64,000 nt of DNA from Escherichia phage EC148: sequence record NC_106721.1; one strand, 5' to 3'. Under the pieces are notes generated by a model that was not told the origin of the DNA, did no database searches, and saw only the letters and a list, made by a program, of their open reading frames with translations. The translations under genes were made by a program, and so were the position numbers. Positions 1 to 64,000 of the stretch are shown here, in pieces; the stretch's first letter is position 1; every line of letters begins with the position of its first letter.

Positions 1-537
1 TAATCAGCTTGCATCCAGAGATTACGAAGAGATCGAACATTGCCCAAATTCCAGAATTTCCACGGAACTACCTCTTCATTGGTTCCAGCATGGAATGTGT
101 TTGCAGAGTAGATAGTCATATCAAACTCTGGGCCATTACCATAATACAAAGCATTTTCGCCTAGAGCCAACTCCATAATATTTTGAGCCATAGAGAAGGC
201 AGCATAGTTTGAGCCAAATTTATTAGTGCAATGATGTTTACCATTTTGGAAGGCAATCAGTTTTGGATTACGTTCCTTCATAGCTTCCATAATGTGAATA
301 GCAGACGGGCTATTTTTAGCTTGATCCATCCAGAATGCTAGAGTAGATGCTGTAACTTTAGCACCAGAATTAAGCTGATCTTGTACATCCAAAGTAACAA
401 ATACTAGATCAGGGTCTTTATCAATTCCATGCATAGCCACAAAAGCGAAAGAAGGCATTGCGATATGAGTAGTACCACAATCTCCTGGAGTTCCCAGAGA
501 TTCAATATCTAGCATACCAAATGGTTTTACTTTCATA
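1..537 (-). CDS. DEDD-family 3'-5' exonuclease (DnaQ-like), C-terminus cut by window edge
   Basis: ORF runs off the left edge; ATG at 537. My hand translation gives MKVKPFGMLDIESLGTPGD with a DxE (DIE) Exo I-like motif and a later YYGNGPEFD segment. Fold assignment is by motif only. Confidence 0.5.
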
Positions 538-564
538 AGTTATCCTTTATTGTGTAGAAAACTA

Positions 565-801
565 TTAAAGAGCTGTCTCTTTAATAGACTCCCACTTCTT
601 GGGGTCTTTAAAACCAGGGAGCATATCCTCACTGACATCCCAGTTCTCTTCCATAGAGAAGTCGGGCCATTCATCCCAACTACCTTCCAACTCTTCATAA
701 CAGGTATCCATTACCTCATGACTAGAAAGTCGTGTATAATCCCTAGCTGACTTATGGGTGGTAGCACGGTTAAAATCATTCTTTGCCACAAAATTACGCA
801 T
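565..801 (-). CDS. hypothetical acidic protein (78 aa)
   Basis: ORF track; GGAG-type RBS upstream; sits in a co-directional early operon. Confidence 0.45.
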   Translation of the reverse strand: MRNFVAKNDFNRATTHKSARDYTRLSSHEVMDTCYEELEGSWDEWPDFSMEENWDVSEDMLPGFKDPKKWESIKETAL

Positions 802-802
802 A

Positions 803-833
803 GTTTCTCCAAATAAGAGGGGCTTTCGCCCCC
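803..833 (-). terminator. intercistronic GAAA-tetraloop hairpin plus U-rich tract (attenuator or processing site)
   Basis: Minus-strand RNA GGGGGC-GAAA-GCCCC then CUUAUUUGG. Confidence 0.4.
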
Positions 834-842
834 TGATTTAAA

Positions 843-1058
843 TCACTTGCCCAGCAGTTTAAGGATATTTTCCATAATAGTTTGGGCAGATTTTTCACTC
901 TTGTTGGTTTCAGCCAACTTTAAAGCGAGTTCTTCCTGCTGTTTCTGAATATCAGCTGCGATTTTTTGATCAGCCTCAATACGAGCTTGAAGCTCATCAG
1001 TGATAGTGGTAAAGGAAGCAACGATTTCAGTAACAGAACGTGGTTTCTTAGAGAACAT
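843..1058 (-). CDS. hypothetical coiled-coil protein (71 aa)
   Basis: ORF track; followed on the minus strand by a GAAA-tetraloop hairpin. Confidence 0.45.
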   Translation of the reverse strand: MFSKKPRSVTEIVASFTTITDELQARIEADQKIAADIQKQQEELALKLAETNKSEKSAQTIMENILKLLGK

Positions 1059-1122: not shown

Positions 1123-1638
1123 TTACTTCGCTTTACGCTTGCGAGCTGGTTTAGCAGATTTACGAGCAGAATCACCAGTGAACTTAATGCCTACACCGTA
1201 ACACAGAGCGCGAACATTATCTTTACTATACTCTACGCCAAAGATATTTGGCTTAACAGAACCAAACTGTCCACGAGTATCGCGCAATACATCTGCTGTT
1301 GGTTTACGCTTCTGGTTAACTGCCTTCTCGTAGTCTTTCATAGACATACCATTACGAGAGAACAATTCAGCCCCAGCGTTGAAACTCAAAGATACTGGGA
1401 CAGATTTGTGGCCGTAATTTTCTACATACATAACCATTTTGTAGGATTTACGGGTGGCATTTTTAGCTTTAGGCTTCTTACGAATCGGAGCCGGATTATT
1501 CAATGCTTGCGCAGCCTGAGCATCGGTAGGATGCTTACGCAGGTGACGTTCCAGACGAGCTTTGCGATTAGCCTCGGTCTGCGGGAAAGTTTTAACTGCC
1601 GGGGCTGCTTGAGTTTTTGCGTTTTTCTGCTTAGCCAT
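1123..1638 (-). CDS. hypothetical Lys/Arg-rich protein (171 aa), possible nucleic-acid binding
   Basis: ORF track; basic N- and C-terminal tails; T5-type early promoter directly upstream (1677-1705). Confidence 0.55.
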   Translation of the reverse strand: MAKQKNAKTQAAPAVKTFPQTEANRKARLERHLRKHPTDAQAAQALNNPAPIRKKPKAKNATRKSYKMVMYVENYGHKSVPVSLSFNAGAELFSRNGMSMKDYEKAVNQKRKPTADVLRDTRGQFGSVKPNIFGVEYSKDNVRALCYGVGIKFTGDSARKSAKPARKRKAK

Positions 1639-6194: not shown

Positions 6195-8525
6195 TTAAAT
6201 AGTACAACCGCCTGATGCACAACCAGCTGCTTCTTCTCCAGCACCACCACCATTTGCGGTGTTGAAGTTAGCATAATACCAAGTTTTCCACCCGTATTTA
6301 ACAGCAGTCATGAAATCACGAACTACTACTGGGCCAGGAATAATTTCATTCTCAAACTTGGTGTAGTCGTAGTACATATTAGTACTAACAGACTGGCTGA
6401 AGAATTTCTGCATAGTTGCTACCCATTTGATCCACTCGATACGATCTACATCATAAGCCAATTTATAGCTCATTAACGTTTCCCAATCGGTTGCACCTGG
6501 AGCAATTGCAATTACTTTATTTACTGCACTACCCTTGATAGATACAATCTTACGAGGTGGTTCGATAGAGTTAGTAACACCTAACAGAACAGAAGAACTT
6601 TCTCCCGGCATCTGAGCAGTCAGAACAGAGTTACGCATACCATATTTCAGAATATCTGCACGCAGAGACTCCCAGTCCATTTCTAGACCTACGGATACCA
6701 GCTCATCAACAGTTTTCTTGTACGTGTCGATTACCAGAATTCCTTTAGATGGTTTAGTACGATCAAACCACTCACATGCACCCTGTTCCTTAGCCAGGCG
6801 TACAGAGGCTTTATGCAGGAAGTAAGACAGTTTTTCAGCCTCACGGTGGATCCAGTTACGAGCTTCAATACCTTCGTAAGCCAGACCTTCTGCTGCCATT
6901 GCACCTGCTGCGTTCATTAGGCCAATACCGACATTACGACGTTTCTTAGCCGTATATTCCATAGTTGGGAACGGATAATCCTGAATTTCAATAATTGTAT
7001 CAACGAATTTCAGAAGGATGTAGCAAGTTTTTTCCCACTCAGCCAGAGATTCCATGCGTCCAAGTACAACACCACCTAAGTTACACAGAGATACTTCACC
7101 AATATCCTCCGGCTTCATTTGATCAAGCTGCTCTTTTGTCTTGTACAGCTCTGTAATGTGATGGAACGGGCGTGTAGGCTGAGTAATTTCAACACAAAGG
7201 TTTGTCATACGGATCGGATCAAGGAAGTTACCGTGACGATTAGATTCCCCAATGTGGTGAGCATACATACGTCCTGTTTCCATTCGGATACGTAGCCAAG
7301 TATCTAGGATTTCTTTTGCAGAGACTTTAGGAGCTGCAGGAACTGTTTTTCCTTCGTGGTCGATCTTTGTAAGAGATGCCACACGTTTCTCCGCTGCCAC
7401 GTAGATTTCTTCAAATTTAGCCTCGTCATCACTATAAAACGCTTCATGAACTTCTGGAGCATAGAAGTATGACATTAGCGTAATATCTTCGTTTTTAAGA
7501 TAACGTTTTAACAAAAGATTGTTAAAGCTCAGAGAATAATCCATCTTATCGATTTTATTCTCATCTGTAGCACGTTGTTGCTTAACCTGCATCAATTGAA
7601 TGATTTCAGGGTCGAAGTATGGATAAGACACTGTAGCAGAACCACCACGAGTTTGCTGAGTATTGGCCTTTACTGAGCGGTCAATGTGTCGATAATACGG
7701 CAGTTTTCCGGAATGCGGGAATGCCCCATTTCGCACCGGATCAGCAATTGATCGGCTTTCAAGATGATACCCGATTCCCGCTCTGGCTGCGACCATTTTG
7801 AAGACGATGTGCTCGGCGGTGTCGATTGAATCCAACGTGTCAGTGGAATCCACGAGACAGCAACTAGCAAATCCACGGTCACTAGAGCGCAGACCAACCA
7901 GTGGCGGCGTAGGAACGTTGATTTTGTGGAGCGACATTGCGTTGTAGAGGTCGATTGCATCTAGAATTGTCCAGTTAGGTTGAGATAACATCGCCATTGC
8001 CATACCCATGTAGGCGAATTGCGGGGTTTCATAAATTTCACCAGTGGCTATATTACGACGGGAATACTTATCAAAGAACTGCTTCAGCCCACCACTAGTA
8101 AAAAGACGGTCACGATCATGGTCGATAACCTGATTCAGAGCTTCAAATTGCTCATCGGTAATCCATGCACTCATGTCTTCCCATGCACCTACGCTAACCA
8201 TGTGGTCATGGAAGAAGCGTAAAGAAGGTGGTTCGAAAGAGTCATAAAGGCGTTTACGCATTTGCGCAAGACGTAATTCCTTTGCTGGCACATCGTATGC
8301 TGGATTATCTTTAATAAGACTTTCAGCAGCTTTAATTAATGCATCCATCAGAGTGTCGGAATCTACAACCCCTTTAGGCAGAGTTTTTTGAGCAGCCATA
8401 GTAATGGCTGACCAGCTTACATCAACTGTTTTGCAACCATACTCTGCCCAACCATTGATTTTTTCAGGAGCAAAGTCTTCTACAGTACCGTCACGTTTAA
8501 TTACTTTTTCAATGCGATGGCTCAT
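6195..8525 (-). CDS. nrdA: ribonucleotide reductase class Ia alpha subunit
   Basis: NLCVEI active-site motif present. Start set at the ATG 8525..8523 (MSHRIEKVIKRDG, AAGGAAA RBS) rather than the ORF-track start at 8630. Confidence 0.9.
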   Translation of the reverse strand: MSHRIEKVIKRDGTVEDFAPEKINGWAEYGCKTVDVSWSAITMAAQKTLPKGVVDSDTLMDALIKAAESLIKDNPAYDVPAKELRLAQMRKRLYDSFEPPSLRFFHDHMVSVGAWEDMSAWITDEQFEALNQVIDHDRDRLFTSGGLKQFFDKYSRRNIATGEIYETPQFAYMGMAMAMLSQPNWTILDAIDLYNAMSLHKINVPTPPLVGLRSSDRGFASCCLVDSTDTLDSIDTAEHIVFKMVAARAGIGYHLESRSIADPVRNGAFPHSGKLPYYRHIDRSVKANTQQTRGGSATVSYPYFDPEIIQLMQVKQQRATDENKIDKMDYSLSFNNLLLKRYLKNEDITLMSYFYAPEVHEAFYSDDEAKFEEIYVAAEKRVASLTKIDHEGKTVPAAPKVSAKEILDTWLRIRMETGRMYAHHIGESNRHGNFLDPIRMTNLCVEITQPTRPFHHITELYKTKEQLDQMKPEDIGEVSLCNLGGVVLGRMESLAEWEKTCYILLKFVDTIIEIQDYPFPTMEYTAKKRRNVGIGLMNAAGAMAAEGLAYEGIEARNWIHREAEKLSYFLHKASVRLAKEQGACEWFDRTKPSKGILVIDTYKKTVDELVSVGLEMDWESLRADILKYGMRNSVLTAQMPGESSSVLLGVTNSIEPPRKIVSIKGSAVNKVIAIAPGATDWETLMSYKLAYDVDRIEWIKWVATMQKFFSQSVSTNMYYDYTKFENEIIPGPVVVRDFMTAVKYGWKTWYYANFNTANGGGAGEEAAGCASGGCTI

Positions 8526-9745: not shown

Positions 9746-9937
9746 CTACAATTTTAAATAAGCCTATGATATTGCATTTAAATAAAAAATTTGCTTGCTT
9801 TTAACGTGAGATGTGTGATACTAGATAATCATTTTATATCGCGTGCACGAGTGCGTGATTATACAATTTTTAATAGAGATTGGCAAATAAAATTTTTTGA
9901 CTCAGATCATGTTACAGAACTTTATAGTAAAATATTG

Positions 9938-12549: not shown

Positions 12550-12739
12550 GGGTTTAAACTCCGCTTTGGAAAATGCATTAATGCAGCAGTGGGAAACTGG
12601 CTATAAGGATGGTGTTGAATCCTGCGCTACTATGCTAGAAGTTATTGCTAATACCTTAATGGAGAAAGGCAATAAAGAATTAGCTGAGCTATTAGACAGT
12701 ATTGGGCAAAACTTCAGAGAACAGGTGAAAAATGCGTAG
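12518..12739 (+). CDS. hypothetical protein (73 aa)
   Basis: ORF track; GGAGAAA RBS upstream. Confidence 0.45.
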   Translation: MAFSKPILPDKGLNSALENALMQQWETGYKDGVESCATMLEVIANTLMEKGNKELAELLDSIGQNFREQVKNA

Positions 12740-15183: not shown

Positions 15184-15682
15184 ATTTATATTGAATTGAG
15201 AGACATTAGTAAAAATTGATTTTGCTAATTTTTCTTGTTTACAATCCGCGATACGGAACAGTTAGGCTGCCCCATTAAGGGTTGTTTTAACTGTTACGTG
15301 TTAGTTTTTAAACAAATAGTTAATAGAATACTTAGCGATCTGCGTCCCATAGGAACCCTGGTAAGGCCTCGAAGCAACCTAGTATGAGGTGGTTGTGAAG
15401 TGAGATGGGAGGAGTGAAAAACTCCGAGACGTGATTCTGTAAGTTATATTGCATCTAGTATGAGCTAGTATATGAAGCATTAGGTGAGCAAATCTGGCTT
15501 AGCGGCCATCCTCAAGGATTTGTGCGATATAGCAAAGCAGCAGCGCAGCGTGAAAGTGGAAGTTGCCACCCCCCTTCAGTATTTGCGATTAATTTGTTGA
15601 GAAATTGACAGTAACAGTTGTTCTATTCTTTCTGAATAGTCCTAAAGAAAACTTATTTTATTTCCAACACAGGAGTATTGTT

Positions 15683-22445: not shown

Positions 22446-23216
22446 ATGAAAATCGAAATTCCAACACAATGTCCCTCTTGTGGTTCTAAGCTAGATCTTG
22501 TCAACGGACAATTATTTTGTCGGAATAAGTCCAACTGTCCAGCGCAATCAAGTAAGTTAATTGAGAACTTCTGTACAAAAATGAAGTTAAAGGGTTTTGG
22601 TCCAAAAACTATTGAGAAGCTGGAGCTGACGAAGATTTCAGAACTATTTTACCTAACCGAAGAAGATTTGGTTAGAGCCGTGGGTAGCAAGGTTGCCGCT
22701 AAGTTAATTAGCGAATTAAATACTAAAGTTCGCGGAGACATTGACTTTGGTTCAGTTCTCGGTTCTTTAGGAATCCCTCTAATTGGAGAGGTTGCAGCAA
22801 AGAAATTATCCCAAAATTGCACTAGCTTCCACGATGTGAAGGCTGACGGCAAGGCTGGAGAAAATTATAAAGCCTGGCTAAATTCCCCACAAGGCAAGGA
22901 TGTTATCGAATTACCGTGGAAATTCTCAACTGGTGCTAAAGCTAAAACCGTCGTTACTGATGATTTAGTTGCCCAGCCAAATGGAATCGCGGTATGTATT
23001 ACCGGATCTTTGCAAGACTTTGCAAATCGAACGGATGCAACAAACTATTTAGAAGGTCTAGGATATACGGTTAAGAAATCTGTTACCAAAGACGTCAAAT
23101 ACCTAATCTGTGAGGATGAATCGAAGCGTTCTTCCTCATCTTATAAGAAAGCCGAAACGAATGGGATAGAAATCCTGTCGATTAAAGAACTATTGGAGAA
23201 AAATAATAATGTCTAA
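22446..23216 (+). CDS. NAD+-dependent DNA ligase, C-terminal subunit (Zn finger, HhH, BRCT-like)
   Basis: Cys4 Zn finger CPSCGSKLDLVNGQLFCRNKSNCPAQ at the N-terminus; ATG at 22446 with AAGGAAG RBS. Confidence 0.8.
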   Translation: MKIEIPTQCPSCGSKLDLVNGQLFCRNKSNCPAQSSKLIENFCTKMKLKGFGPKTIEKLELTKISELFYLTEEDLVRAVGSKVAAKLISELNTKVRGDIDFGSVLGSLGIPLIGEVAAKKLSQNCTSFHDVKADGKAGENYKAWLNSPQGKDVIELPWKFSTGAKAKTVVTDDLVAQPNGIAVCITGSLQDFANRTDATNYLEGLGYTVKKSVTKDVKYLICEDESKRSSSSYKKAETNGIEILSIKELLEKNNNV

Positions 23217-23976
23217 ACTGAACTGGAACGTAGAAGGTGTAACCGAGTCTCTGAAAGCAAAAGCCACTGCTCTGGGTGTTTCTGTAATCTCTCAAGAACA
23301 AGTAGCCGCTATCGCCGCTGAACTGGCTGCTGAAACTGGCAAAGATGTTACCGCCCGCTCTGTTGGCTCTAAACTGCGTAAAGAAGGTTTTGAAGTACAG
23401 AAAGCTAACGAAGTACAGAAATCCCCGTGGACTCCTGAGCAGGAAGCTGAACTGGTTGATTTCCTGAACGCTCATGCTGGTCAGTATACCTATGCTGAAA
23501 TCGCTGCTGCTGTAGCTGGTGGTCAGTTCGGTGCTAAGCAGGTACAGGGTAAGATTCTGAGCCTGGAAATGACCGCTTCTGTTAAACCAACTGAAAAAGC
23601 TGCTGCTGTTCGTTCCTTTACTCCGGATGAAGAAACTGATTTTGTTAATCAGGTTGTTGCTGGTGCTACTATTGAAGCTATCGCTGCTCACTTCGGTCGC
23701 AATATTAAGCAGATCCGTGGTAAAGCTCTGAGTCTGCTTCGTGAAGGTCGTATCGCTGCTATGCCGGTACAGGAAACCTCAAGTGCTAAAACTCGTGAAG
23801 ATCTGTTAGAAGGTCTGGATCTGGTTAACATGACTGTTGCTGAGATCGCTGAGAAAACTGGTAAATCTGAGCGCGGTGTTAAATCTATGCTGTCTCGTCG
23901 TGGTCTGGTTGCTAAGGACTATGATGGTGCCGCTAAGCGTGCTAAACTGGATGCAAAAGCTGCGGCTGCTGAATAA
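23209..23976 (+). CDS. abundant repeat-containing DNA-binding protein (possibly T5 D5-like)
   Basis: 255 aa; host-optimal codons throughout; four internal ~55-aa repeats with an HTH-like core; strong terminator downstream. D5 equivalence is positional inference. Confidence 0.45.
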   Translation: MSKLNWNVEGVTESLKAKATALGVSVISQEQVAAIAAELAAETGKDVTARSVGSKLRKEGFEVQKANEVQKSPWTPEQEAELVDFLNAHAGQYTYAEIAAAVAGGQFGAKQVQGKILSLEMTASVKPTEKAAAVRSFTPDEETDFVNQVVAGATIEAIAAHFGRNIKQIRGKALSLLREGRIAAMPVQETSSAKTREDLLEGLDLVNMTVAEIAEKTGKSERGVKSMLSRRGLVAKDYDGAAKRAKLDAKAAAAE

Positions 23977-52830: not shown

Positions 52831-53316
52831 TTATCTGCGAAGTGACCTACGTGGAGGCTGATACCTCACTGTTACATTTATTTCTGCTAAACCATATGGG
52901 GCCAGTAGACCCTCATCTGTACTAACTGATGTAATGATCATATCAGTTGCCTCACATGGGAAGATCGATCCATTAGGTTTACTAACAGTATATTCTAAAT
53001 TTCCACCTGTGTCAATAACGGTTTTTATATCCGCTACGAGTTTTTCAAGTTGCTCTTGAATGTCTGTTTTCTCTTTATCGTACACCAGGATTGGAAGTTC
53101 TAAAAACATCCACTGTTGGCCTGAAGGAAGATACTGCCCAGTTTCAGTTCCGATATGAACTGCCACATAAGGAAACTCTCGTATTTCCTCAAATTTATAA
53201 GTTTGACGAGAAACGTTTCCATATAGGTTATTAAAATATTCGTCAGGTTGAGAACCGTCCAACTGTTTAGATATACGGTCAACCAGAGCTTGTGCAATAC
53301 TTGTTCTATGATCCAT
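52831..53316 (-). CDS. tail terminator protein (p142-like)
   Basis: 161 aa; position between the head-completion and tail-tube genes. Confidence 0.45.
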   Translation of the reverse strand: MDHRTSIAQALVDRISKQLDGSQPDEYFNNLYGNVSRQTYKFEEIREFPYVAVHIGTETGQYLPSGQQWMFLELPILVYDKEKTDIQEQLEKLVADIKTVIDTGGNLEYTVSKPNGSIFPCEATDMIITSVSTDEGLLAPYGLAEINVTVRYQPPRRSLRR

Positions 53317-60746: not shown

Positions 60747-62504
60747 TTAGGTAAGGCGTTGAACTGTTACTCTTAATCTAGGTAGAAAAACTGCACTACC
60801 TAAACTTACGTGCATAACTACCCCTAACTCTACATTTCCATTCCCCAGATTTTTAGCAGTATATATAAAACTATTTCTACTTAGGGCATTGTTAGGTGTG
60901 TATCTAAAAGCAGATGTAGTATGAAAAGGTACTAAATACCCTACTGGTAATGTTAAAATCTGGTGGAATATCGCGTCACCATTACTATAACTATATGCTC
61001 TTCTTCCTTGCACCTGAAACACACCGTTATTCCATGTATTAGCAGGGACACCTGCACAGTTAAGATTACCTGATATAACTTCAGTGGTAAGAATTACTGT
61101 AGCATTGCCACCCGGTATACCTAGCCCAATAGTTGATAAACCAACGTATCTATCTCCTGTTCCTGGGTAGCTGGGGGTAATATCATCTCCCATATAAGAA
61201 CTACCTACATTTCCACCAAAAAGTCGTAATGGAACTGCTGATGGTCCCCAAACAACCCCGTGTTCATTACCGATAGTATTATCATTAGAGTTTACGTACC
61301 ATTGCTTACCAGCTCCGAATTTGTAAATACTAATTTGAGACTTAGCCCCTCCATAGTCCACAGGAGACCATAAACTCCCGTTACTAGAACCTACAAGTTC
61401 ACACCTTGCGGTGGTATCCCCAAAGGCCCCAGTATATGCTGCATTATTTCCAATATATTCCATATCTGGTCTATAACCTAAGTTACCGAAAGCGTTCTGG
61501 TTAATAAACTTGTATCCAGTATTGGGAAGACTAACCCCTTTAATTATGAAATTAGAAGGAGATATAAGAATATCTGAACCAGTAAAAGGATTACCAGAGA
61601 TACTCATACCACCATTTGAGTATCTTAAATTCAAAACGTACCAAATAACTTTAGTAGGAGTTATGTTATACCAATCTTGTAGTATTGTAGAATCACCAGA
61701 TTGATTAGCTAAATTAGTTGTAGAACCCCTACAAACAAACCTATTACCCCCATCATGATACATAGTATTTACATTACCAGGAAGACCTTGTCTTACCCCA
61801 CCATACCCACGTATGTTAGAGTTACAAACATAGAACCAATCGTGCCCTCTGTGTGCTGATCCTAAAGGAGACATCCATCCTGGGTCCCAGTAATTTTGGT
61901 TATTCCCATCTATAGGTACTGTACTACTATTAGTAGGGAATCCTAACTGTGCAAAAGCTTCTGCAACAGTAACCCCTACTGGAGCTCCTGCACCTGGCCT
62001 AACTATACCATGATACGTACTATGTAGGGTAGTTCCACCAGTACCATTCCTAGAAATAGATTCTTCATGCCCTATAGATGGATTATAGTTATATGTACCA
62101 GATGCCAGGCTATTACCAAATGCAAATCCACTAGTCTGGGAAACACTAGCAAAAGATCTAAAAGGATCTGCTTGAGTGGCAACTATAGTTTGACCCACCT
62201 TACTCTGAGTACCATTAAGAAAAGCTCTGTGAGTACCATTAATCTCAATAGCAGTTAATATAACTCTACCAGGATCGTTAGATTTAATATTTATTATGTC
62301 AGAGGGCATCTGACATACAAAAAACCCATTTCCGGCATTTCCTAACCCAGCCTCATAAGTACCATCAACTAGGACAAATGGCATATCACTATGAAAAATA
62401 CTATTGGCATTTGGACTATAGTGACGATTAATGTCACCACCAGATTCAGTATTTAAAGATAGTACGGTCTTACCATCGCTATATTTTCCAGCGAAAAAAC
62501 CCAT
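60747..62504 (-). CDS. receptor-binding tail protein (pb5/Oad functional analog)
   Basis: 585 aa; Gly/Asn/Ser/Tyr-rich; divergent from an llp-like lipoprotein gene as in the T5 oad-llp arrangement. Confidence 0.6.
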
Positions 62505-62529
62505 ATAATCTCCTATTATAAAAATGTAT

Positions 62530-62558
62530 TTGCTTTCATCCCTCTATTTTGCTATAAT
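62530..62558 (+). promoter_or_regulatory. T5-type early promoter driving llp (TTGCTT-17-TATAAT)
   Basis: Followed by AGATTCATAAATTAGAAATGGAGAG and the llp ATG. Confidence 0.7.
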
Positions 62559-62589
62559 AGATTCATAAATTAGAAATGGAGAGATAAAT

Positions 62590-62856
62590 ATGAAAAAGTT
62601 TGTGATTGCACTAGTTGCCGCAGTTATGTTATCTGGTTGTGCACCTGCTCCCAAACCATTTTGTACTGGATTTGTAAAATCTTTTGGTGGTGCGGGAGAA
62701 GAACATTACGGCCTCAAGGTTCAAAAAGTTCGTATTAAGGGAGATCGCTTCCCAGTAGTACAGCTCCGTACTAAGTTTGGATGGTGGGATCTCAGTCAGT
62801 TTGACCTTAAATATGGTGATTGTAAATTTAAACTAGAGCAATCTAACTACCTGTAA
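62590..62856 (+). CDS. llp: receptor-blocking lipoprotein (Llp-like)
   Basis: 88 aa; signal peptide with lipobox LSGC; T5-type early promoter 62530-62558. Confidence 0.7.
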   Translation: MKKFVIALVAAVMLSGCAPAPKPFCTGFVKSFGGAGEEHYGLKVQKVRIKGDRFPVVQLRTKFGWWDLSQFDLKYGDCKFKLEQSNYL

Positions 62857-63034
62857 TTAGTATAAAGCAAAAAGACATCTAAGTAAACTAAATTTTTTAT
62901 TTTTTGGATGGTATATTGGCAGAAACCACTATGTAAGAAAATGAGAAGTCCTTCTAGGAAGTCACAAGCATGGTTGGTTATATACAAATTATAAAATATT
63001 TTTAAAATACCATACTCATAGGAGCAAGAAAGAT

Positions 63035-63163
63035 ATGTCAAATAAAAGAAAGAACAGACGCGGAGAAGTGTACGAAGCGTGGATTAATATTTACGGATTT
63101 GGTTTTGTATTATTCCTAATCTTCGTAGGTTTTTGGTTAGCAGCTATGGCGGGGTGGATTTAA
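63035..63163 (+). CDS. small membrane protein (42 aa)
   Basis: Found by hand (below the ORF-track cutoff); AGGAG RBS; basic N-terminus then one hydrophobic helix. Confidence 0.4.
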   Translation: MSNKRKNRRGEVYEAWINIYGFGFVLFLIFVGFWLAAMAGWI

Positions 63164-63318
63164 TGGAATGGGTAATTATTGGCATATTCGTCTTATTGAT
63201 ACTTCTCTTTGTAGGCTTACGTGTAATAGATACCTCTGTAACCCAAACAGAAATTAAATTAATGCAGTTGAGTAATAGATTATCTAGAATTGAAACTTTA
63301 TTAGAGGAGCGTAAATAA
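63163..63318 (+). CDS. small membrane protein (51 aa), MEWVII family
   Basis: ATG at 63163 overlaps the upstream stop; N-terminal TM helix and C-terminal SRIETLLEERK. Confidence 0.45.
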   Translation: MEWVIIGIFVLLILLFVGLRVIDTSVTQTEIKLMQLSNRLSRIETLLEERK

Positions 63319-63425
63319 TGGAATGGGTAATTATTGCACTACTGGGGATTGTGATTATTGGGCAATGTATTTTAGATAATCATTTAGCTAGAATTGAAAC
63401 CTTACTATCGGAGAAACGTAAATGA
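63318..63425 (+). CDS. small membrane protein (35 aa), MEWVII family
   Basis: Found by hand; MEWVIIALLGIVIIG...ARIETLLSEKRK; paralog of the previous gene; TAATG overlap. Confidence 0.4.
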   Translation: MEWVIIALLGIVIIGQCILDNHLARIETLLSEKRK

Positions 63426-63616
63426 TGGAAGTGGGAATTACACTAATAGTAATATTAGTCTGGGTAATCCTCATTGTCTCTCGTATCGTGTATCTCCGCC
63501 TAAAAACTCTAGAAGCTCAGGTGAAACAACAACAAGTTATTCTAGAAAAGTTAGTACTACTGCAACGTTGTGATAGCACCCGTATTCTGCAAATTGAGAG
63601 GGAATTAGATGTTTAG
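63422..63616 (+). CDS. small membrane protein (64 aa)
   Basis: ORF track; N-terminal TM helix then predicted coiled coil; ATGA overlap. Confidence 0.45.
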   Translation: MMEVGITLIVILVWVILIVSRIVYLRLKTLEAQVKQQQVILEKLVLLQRCDSTRILQIERELDV

Positions 63617-63854
63617 TATTGTAATTGCTTTTATTATCGGGATACTTGCGGGAGTTTTCGGGACAACTGCGGCAATCAACAAGCATCGTAAATATATTGC
63701 GGAAGTATCGCGGGAGATTGCGGAAAGGGAGCGGAAGTTTGACGAGAAACGTGCGGAGTTTGAGCGGGAGTGGTCGGACGGATCTCGGGCGTCGCGGAAG
63801 AGATTCCGTGAGTTCAGACCAGAACACAGGTTTGATGACCATTCTATGCGCTAA
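63609..63854 (+). CDS. small membrane protein (81 aa) with charged GC-rich C-terminal half
   Basis: ORF track; N-terminal TM helix; C-terminal Arg/Glu-rich region encoded by unusually GC-rich DNA. Confidence 0.45.
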   Translation: MFSIVIAFIIGILAGVFGTTAAINKHRKYIAEVSREIAERERKFDEKRAEFEREWSDGSRASRKRFREFRPEHRFDDHSMR

Positions 63855-63967
63855 TTTGACTTTTGCCAAATTTCATAAGATTACACATGGAGGTGTGTCC
63901 AGTGGGTCGGGGGAGAATACTTAGTCTGCTAACCGCCACCCCCCGTTACTATTATCATGGTAATTGT

Positions 63968-64000
63968 TTCACCCTGCAACCATTTTAATTGCAGGGTGAA
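63968..64000. other. 12-bp perfect inverted repeat (hairpin) at the window edge
   Basis: TTCACCCTGCAA (63968-63979), 9-nt loop, TTGCAGGGTGAA (63989-64000). Confidence 0.7.

Follow-up and report, generated by a model that had tools for sequence, protein, structure and literature searches.

A GC-rich gene tail, a terminal-repeat boundary and a hairpin at the right end of a T5-like phage sequence

Why do a GC-rich stretch, a C-rich decamer and a perfect inverted repeat lie together in the last 350 bp of the 64,000-nt stretch of DNA analysed here (the window)? The first-pass annotation had taken the three features as possible packaging, nicking or replication signals close to a terminal repeat of the T5 type, or as parts of a horizontally acquired patch. 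We arrived at a plainer explanation, to which we assign a probability of roughly 80%. The last 350 bp represent the junction of the unique part of a T5-like genome with the right terminal repeat of ~10 kb, and they comprise the GC-rich tail of a gene, a spacer, the repeat boundary and a hairpin that most likely works as an RNA element, while the decamer is a coincidence. The main elements, namely gene, boundary and hairpin, are already annotated in T5 records. The features and their coordinates are listed in Table 1.

Table 1. Features at the right end of the window and the related site near position 15,565
Feature	Position	Strand	Basis
Second copy of the decamer, in the leader ~110 nt upstream of a replication-origin-binding protein / helicase gene	15565..15574	+	Exact match
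Gene for a small single-pass membrane protein of 81 aa with a charged C-terminal tail	63609..63854	+	ORF listing; PHROG; CDS in relatives
GC-rich core, Arg/Glu/Ala-rich tail codons with dense GCGG / GCGGRAG	63640..63800	+	55% GC
Near-invariant non-coding block AAATTTCATAAGATTACACATGGAGGTGT, directly outside the repeat	63868..63896		Per-column conservation
Boundary of unique region and right terminal repeat, equivalent to the first base, or left terminus, of the mature genome	63896..63897		Homology to relatives
First 104 bp of the right terminal repeat, non-coding, from the genome end to the 3' end of dmp	63897..64000		Aligned with the left ends of T5 and MM-1
Imperfect stem-loop near the terminus	63908..63945	-	Predicted fold only
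Decamer GCCACCCCCC, +39 to +48 of the terminal repeat	63935..63944	+	Exact match
Stem-loop between convergent orf4 and dmp, putative terminator / 3'-end hairpin	63962..64000	-	Inverted repeat, fold, covariation, annotation

Position of the window and start of the terminal repeat

The last kilobase of the window matched 259 phage records, almost all of them from T5-like phages of Escherichia and Salmonella, with vB_EcoS_MM-1 and MM-2 as the closest matches (99.8% identity). On the basis of this similarity, we assign the window to a Tequintavirus genome in standard T5 orientation. Its start corresponds to ~42 kb on the MM-1 map, and the left terminal repeat lies outside it. The window differs from MM-1 by the inversion of the hairpin loop described below, and from T5_ev212 in gene content. 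ARAGORN detected no tRNA in the whole window, and no Rfam match at E <= 1 was obtained for positions 62500-64000.

The start of the terminal repeat was located by homology to relatives with mapped ends. The annotated right terminal repeat of MM-1 (107633..118039) begins at the base aligned with 63897. The first base of the BF23 genome, the termini of which were determined by PhageTerm (PMC10644984), aligns with this same position. Base 1 of T5 AY543070 (right terminal repeat annotated at 111532..121750) aligns with 63896, the repeat annotation of SIA3lw ends at the boundary base equivalent to 63896/63897, and the starts of five IMG/VR contigs fall no more than 3 nt from the boundary. The agreement of these ends places the boundary at 63896/63897. 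In MM-1 and T5, where both copies of the repeat were aligned, the sequence to the right of the boundary is duplicated at the left end of the genome. The flanking genes are in line with this assignment, with the llp operon and orf4 on the left, inside the window, and dmp, encoded on the minus strand, on the right. The latter gene lies just past position 64000, contiguous with matching sequence in MM-1, T5 and 20 other loci (T5 dmp CDS, complement(124..858)). With the boundary at this position, the decamer (+39) and the hairpin (+66) come to lie inside the repeat. The earlier suspicion that this neighbourhood approaches a terminal repeat was thus well founded: the region even crosses the boundary, and both elements fall into the first ~105 bp of the repeat.

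The gene order at the T5 boundary (AY543070) and in MM-1 is the same as in the window, that is, receptor-binding protein gene, llp/cor, small membrane ORFs, orf4/T5.162, a spacer of ~40 bp and the repeat. T5 and MM-1 also share the boundary bases GGTGTG/TCCA (the slash marks the boundary), and the first 104 bp of their repeats align base for base with those of the window. There are nevertheless differences from T5. The first 20 bp of the repeat read GGGTCGGGGGAG in the window and GCCTCCGGCGAA in T5, the C run is one C longer in the window, and the window contains one extra small ORF, a second copy of phrog_6369. The two adjacent ORFs concerned (63163-63315 and 63318-63422) both match this family and both start with MEWVII. 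They represent a tandem duplication without a T5 counterpart, and the number of small ORFs following llp is four in T5 and five in the window and MM-1.

Two unrelated alleles of the first ~110 bp of the repeat (63897-64006) were observed among the T5-like phages, in a comparison covering 30 loci. Allele A is carried by the window and T5, and allele B by many relatives, including four of the loci; one locus joins the left part of allele B to the hairpin of allele A. The length of the T5 repeat differs between the records AY543070 and AY587007, with 10,219 and 10,139 bp, respectively. Both records place the hairpin at the same coordinates (70-144), and they must therefore disagree either on the other boundary or within the unique region. 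A small ORF that runs across the boundary (ATG at 63887 to TAA at 63988) was discarded as a gene candidate; its frame is shifted in T5 by the one-base difference in the C run, and the corresponding peptide of allele B is unrelated.

The hairpin between orf4 and dmp

The 12-bp perfect inverted repeat seen at the right edge in the first-pass annotation is indeed present, and it is truncated by the end of the window. Its arms, TTCACCCTGCAA at 63968-63979 and TTGCAGGGTGAA at 63989-64000, are 100% complementary and enclose a loop of 9 nt (63980-63988). The full left arm comprises 63962-63979, and the right arm, starting at 63989, extends to about 64006 in relatives. The stem of MM-1 has 18 bp (AATTGTTTCACCCTGCAA, equal to window positions 63962-63979), and the T5 stem is the same except for a single mismatched pair. 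Perfect hairpin-type inverted repeats of at least 12 bp occur three times in the window, the terminal hairpin included.

This element was already known, as the T5 record AY587007 annotates positions 69..105 as a 'putative rho-independent terminator', and the 1994 record X75922 lists an inverted repeat at 1312..1351, between orf4 and dmp, as a repeat_region. Sequence, position and loop orientation of the T5 element are the same as in the window, except that the outer stem is perfect in the window (AATTG/CAATT) and carries one mismatch in T5. Our analysis adds the covariation, the replacement by a second allele, the bias towards the RNA of the dmp strand and the absence of a canonical U tract.

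The hairpin folds with z-scores of -2.9 to -5.5, and its pairing has been kept in evolution. Changes on both sides of a pair were found at 4 of 18 pairs in allele A (12 distinct sequences) and at 3 of 16 pairs in allele B (7 distinct sequences), which amounts to seven such pairs over the two alleles. The stem of allele B, located at the same place, is of unrelated sequence. The covariation score exceeded that of every shuffle and was far above those of all slid registers. Among the non-Watson-Crick cells, 24 are G.U pairs exclusively in minus-strand RNA, compared to a single one exclusively in plus-strand RNA. Wobble pairs additionally extend the pairing into the loop on the minus strand. This bias is suggestive of the dmp transcript as the selected strand, at about seven pair positions (6 vs 1) in related sequences; some 19 distinct sequences underlie the 6:1 ratio. 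In a DNA palindrome, template switching between the arms is another possible source of compensatory changes.

As expected for a terminator, the hairpin is a stable stem-loop that contains G+C and directly follows a gene. In T5, the end of the stem lies 13 nt past the stop codon of dmp, a pre-early gene read leftward. On the minus strand of the window, no U run directly follows the stem (ACCAUGAUAAUAG). The plus strand, read from MM-1, continues with UCAACUUUAAUUAUU, which is U-rich and does not form a run. A simple terminator scan called the hairpin on neither strand in the window, in T5 or in a B-allele phage. With neither a U run nor a call by the scan, the element is not a canonical intrinsic terminator. 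In the papers searched, we found no transcript-end (term-seq, 3' RACE) or cleavage data for T5 at the hairpin or at dmp.

We infer that the hairpin acts most likely as RNA, either as a terminator or as a 3'-end-protecting hairpin between convergent genes. In the dmp transcript, it would form at the 3' end and stop RNA polymerase or block 3' exonucleases ~65 nt before the end of the DNA. The ~65 bp between boundary and hairpin are non-coding DNA with predicted structure and include the C-rich decamer. In the right-hand copy of the repeat and in concatemers, the hairpin would additionally stop rightward transcripts of the llp operon that run antisense into dmp. Hence, dmp would probably be served by the hairpin of either repeat copy, and the llp operon by that of the right-hand copy and of concatemers.

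The first-pass annotation had considered a packaging or replication signal instead, but the hairpin is better read as the known putative terminator downstream of dmp. The hairpin might nevertheless be a maturation signal at the DNA level, with a cruciform or snap-back structure that aids terminase or primes the synthesis by which the repeat is duplicated; a palindrome near the T7 concatemer junction has reportedly been proposed to have such a maturation role. In line with this idea, the hairpin is found at a constant distance of ~65 nt from the terminus in both alleles, and the palindrome is perfect over 18 bp in the lineage of the window. The inverted loop of MM-1, MM-2, FGS029, SIA3lw and probably S.Ent 1-35-3 shows that the arms interact as DNA. 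Loop inversion is, however, a general by-product of any long inverted repeat. At the DNA level, the arms of allele B and T5 contain C.A / A.C mismatches, which only minus-strand RNA turns into G.U pairs. The T5 stem, 13 nt from a stop codon and flanked by convergent genes, occupies the usual place of a terminator. We consider a DNA-level role in maturation unlikely and less well supported than the role as RNA; as DNA, the arms of several relatives contain mismatches.

The inverted loops deserve a comment of their own. The window, T5 and BF23 have the loop CCATTTTAA, and MM-1, MM-2, FGS029 and SIA3lw its exact reverse complement TTAAAATGG; the loop of S.Ent 1-35-3 is probably reverse-complemented as well. 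The flanks differ otherwise, and the inversion is therefore recurrent. It is present in both repeat copies of MM-1, and it is the reason why the 99.8% match to this phage stops at 63979. Thus, template switching between the arms does happen here. Small loop inversions flanked by hairpin stems are known from chloroplast non-coding DNA. The present case is alike in that a 9-nt loop is exactly reverse-complemented between near-identical genomes with unchanged arms; it differs in that it concerns the terminal repeat of a phage, with the same orientation in both MM-1 copies.

The GC-rich tail of orf4 and the C-rich decamer

The 81-aa protein encoded to the left of the boundary matches phrog_6447 'membrane protein' over its full length (E = 6e-48) and consists of one transmembrane segment and an Arg/Glu/Ala-rich tail. 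Its gene is the homologue of T5 orf4 / T5.162, the last gene of the rightward llp operon, where it closes the series of small ORFs that follow llp, the gene of the receptor-blocking lipoprotein. It is annotated as a CDS in MM-1 and in the T5 records AY543070 and X75922. The protein is conserved in 23 relatives, with one Ser residue switching its codon family from TCG to AGT, and the 81-codon ORF is clearly coding.

The first-pass annotation had described the last ~350 bp as GC-rich, and we found 49.0% GC in 63650-64000 compared to a window mean of 39.0%. Segments of 351 bp have a standard deviation of 3.4 points, and 0.4% of them reach 49.0%, though two other stretches of the window are equally rich (starts 7554-7777, up to 51.6%; starts 23213-23423, 49.6%). 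The distribution within the region is uneven, with the highest GC content in the core given in Table 1, 33% in the spacer (63855-63896) and 48% in 63897-64000. The core consists of the tail codons of orf4, in which GCG accounts for 6 of 8 Ala, CGG for 5 of 13 Arg and TCG for 3 of 6 Ser codons; in the 32 long ORFs of the window, these codons contribute 8%, 1% and 3%, respectively, to their families. The GCG, CGG, TCG and GAG codons of the charged tail are thus sufficient on their own to account for the GC excess, and the codon choice also gives rise to a dense cluster of GCGG on the same strand. The tail has a heptad-like organization (IAEVSRE, IAERERK, FDEKRAE, FEREWSD), and the first two units share 15 of 21 nt. 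TRF, at a score of 30, found no tandem repeat behind the GC-rich stretch, and we suggest that an old 21-nt duplication could explain both the motif spacing of 10-11 nt and the codon choice.

The dense GCGG cluster might alternatively mean that the stretch doubles as a protein-binding array, with the GCGGRAG copies serving as sites for the small terminase or another protein. Such an array would consist of same-strand copies spaced ~10-11, 21-22 and 30 nt apart, 100-250 bp to the left of the cut. Six of the 11 copies of GCGGRAG in the window are located within 153 bp of the tail, all on the plus strand, and the total of 11 was not attained in any shuffle. In a ~106-kb composite of MM-1 1-44000 and the window, the tail is the densest GCGG segment, with nine copies compared to five in the next best. 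The motif appears in two reading-frame registers (GCG-GAR and nnG-CGG) formed by codons with a share of 1-8% in their families elsewhere, relatives retain the cluster with 6-9 GCGG each, and the cluster is close to both the cut site and the gene of the small terminase. The variation at synonymous sites, however, is about equal in the tail (~74% of invariant-residue codons) and in the transmembrane half (~69%), and no extra synonymous-site constraint was shown for the tail. Furthermore, single copies have been lost through changes of CGG to CGA or AGA in 3-6 of 24 sequences, and the spacing corresponds to the 3.5-residue period of the heptad-like protein, so that the old duplication could account for spacing and codons alike. 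We regard a binding array as doubtful and attribute the cluster to the codon choice of the tail.

An origin of the segment from a GC-richer source, which the first-pass annotation had also brought up, appears very improbable. Composition and codon usage are far off the genome norm, but the deviation is limited to the second half of one gene, the first half of which is compositionally normal. The gene, with the same odd codons, is present in all 23 T5-like relatives examined, T5 included, without the patchy presence of an acquired island, and flanking repeats and mobile-element genes are absent here. The homing endonuclease insertion of relatives sits after codon 67 and not around the GC-rich segment. 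The GC-rich tail is coding sequence whose unusual codons are common to all these relatives, and it is therefore not a recent import.

Several further observations concern orf4 and its surroundings. Many relatives have an extra gene after the orf4 homologue, and the last 14 codons of the latter are replaced (ten loci). In SP01, HildyBeyeler and ECOP18, the extra gene, which sits between orf4 and the conserved boundary block, is annotated as a homing / HNH endonuclease. An exact direct repeat of 18 nt, AAGTTTGACGAGAAACGT, links the orf4 tail (63735-63752) with positions 53199-53216, inside the minus-strand structural gene 52831-53316; ~0.06 exact matches of this length are expected in the whole window. 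Two candidates were rejected. Four of six frames of the tail are open in nearly all relatives, which is expected from the composition and gives no evidence of a second, overlapping gene. A leftward promoter-like site antisense into orf4 (63869-63841, minus strand; TTGGCA, 17 nt, TAGAAT; 10 of 12 matches) has its -35 part in the variable 12 nt upstream of the conserved block and is not kept in T5.

As reported earlier, the decamer GCCACCCCCC recurs as an exact copy on the same strand in the leader of the replication gene (Table 1), and these two plus-strand copies are the only ones in the window. With up to one mismatch allowed, there are two matches compared to 0.75 expected, and two were reached in 16 of 100 shuffles, so that the frequency in the window is consistent with chance. 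Recurrence elsewhere in the window is nothing special for this region, as it was observed for 56 of the 342 decamers of 63650-64000 compared to 73 +/- 13 in forty other 351-bp segments. MM-1 1-44000 contains no further copies besides that of the same repeat element. The copy in the repeat is not conserved, being shortened by one C in T5 (C5), interrupted in BF23 (GCCACACCCG) and absent from allele B. Of three relatives, two retain the copy at 15565, and the third has GCCACCCCAC in its place.

A functional motif shared by the repeat and the replication-gene leader, such as a protein-binding or nicking site, hence has next to no probability: the two exact same-strand copies, the three C6 runs in the window, two of them with the same preceding GCCA, and the retention of the 15565 copy in 2 of 3 relatives stand against a match at chance level, a repeat copy that is altered in T5 and BF23 and missing in the B-allele phages, the lack of additional copies in MM-1 1-44000 and the lack of any resemblance to the T5 nick consensus. 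The sharing of the decamer with 15565 is a coincidence. The only visible role of the decamer is that of one arm of the predicted terminus-proximal stem-loop, a fold that is predicted on both strands. In the predicted structure, a G run at 63909-63913 is paired to a C run at 63940-63944, and TTAG (63921-63924) to CTAA (63929-63932) in the inner stem. In relatives, the partner of the right arm is a different left arm (CGGCG in T5), which pairs with the adjoining CGCC, and allele B has an unrelated ATGAGA/TCTCAT stem at this place.

The suggested nicking signal finds no counterpart in the region. The T5 nick consensus is 5'-R/GCGCRGG-3' (PMC3517423, citing the AY543070 annotation), and it has no match in 63650-64000. 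The matches in the window are at 12621 (-), 33951 (-), 36120 (+) and 59837 (-), the last being the nearest. In MM-1, RGCGCRGG occurs at 9932, 10862 and 36862, always on the minus strand, to which six of the seven matches in window and MM-1 thus belong. Several of them are close to the classical major nick positions, at about 8%, 32% and 65% of the genome.

A conserved block at the presumed left-end cut

According to the general account of direct terminal repeats, recognition takes place at a fixed position, and synthesis that starts from staggered nicks produces the repeat (PMC5557969). If this account applies here, the boundary would be the site of the left-end cut in concatemers, that is, the cut creating the left genome end would be made at 63896/63897 in replicating DNA. 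In the papers searched, we found no experimentally defined recognition site for T5 and no sequence-level definition of how the two cut sites are chosen for 10-kb repeats of the T5 type.

A highly conserved block lies directly outside the repeat. The spacer before the boundary has 42 bp, and its last ~29 bp (-29 to -1) are almost invariant in 17 distinct junction sequences, whereas the preceding 12 nt and the repeat side vary. The block is retained even at three loci with a replaced upstream gene. A second allele of its left part, AATTTCTTTGGATTACGTACGCGTGGGTGTG, exists in some relatives. A conserved non-coding sequence that adjoins the cut is what a recognition site of terminase would look like, and from its conservation and position we take the block as the best candidate for the recognition sequence of the left-end cut. 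Of the packaging signal that the first-pass annotation had envisaged, this much is retained: the ~29-bp block outside the repeat fits a packaging or cleavage signal, while decamer and hairpin are not read in this way. Tentatively, the block, possibly helped by the GCGGRAG array 100-250 bp upstream, would direct the T5 terminase to the left-end cut, a proposal that we put forward as one possibility and not as the expected outcome. A comparison of the left and right cut sites revealed a shared AAATTTC heptamer and a weak GATTAC/GATTGC resemblance, from which nothing can be claimed. The direct-terminal-repeat sites of the T7/T3 type likewise combine a fixed cut (PMC5557969) with conserved non-coding sequence and a palindrome near the boundary; their repeats measure 160-230 bp compared to 10 kb here, and there is no sequence similarity.

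The value of these results is mainly one of annotation, as the start of the terminal repeat is fixed in the window and the three odd-looking features are accounted for. Further interest may attach only to the boundary block, the codon usage of the orf4 tail and the behaviour of the hairpin. The hairpin, with its two alleles, its strand-biased wobble pairs and its recurrent loop inversion, provides small, clean examples of structure-level selection and palindrome dynamics. If the block does direct the left-end cut, the signal would be located on the unique side of the boundary, and packaged DNA would lack it at the left end. The boundary block lends itself, at little cost, to mutagenesis or terminase-binding tests.
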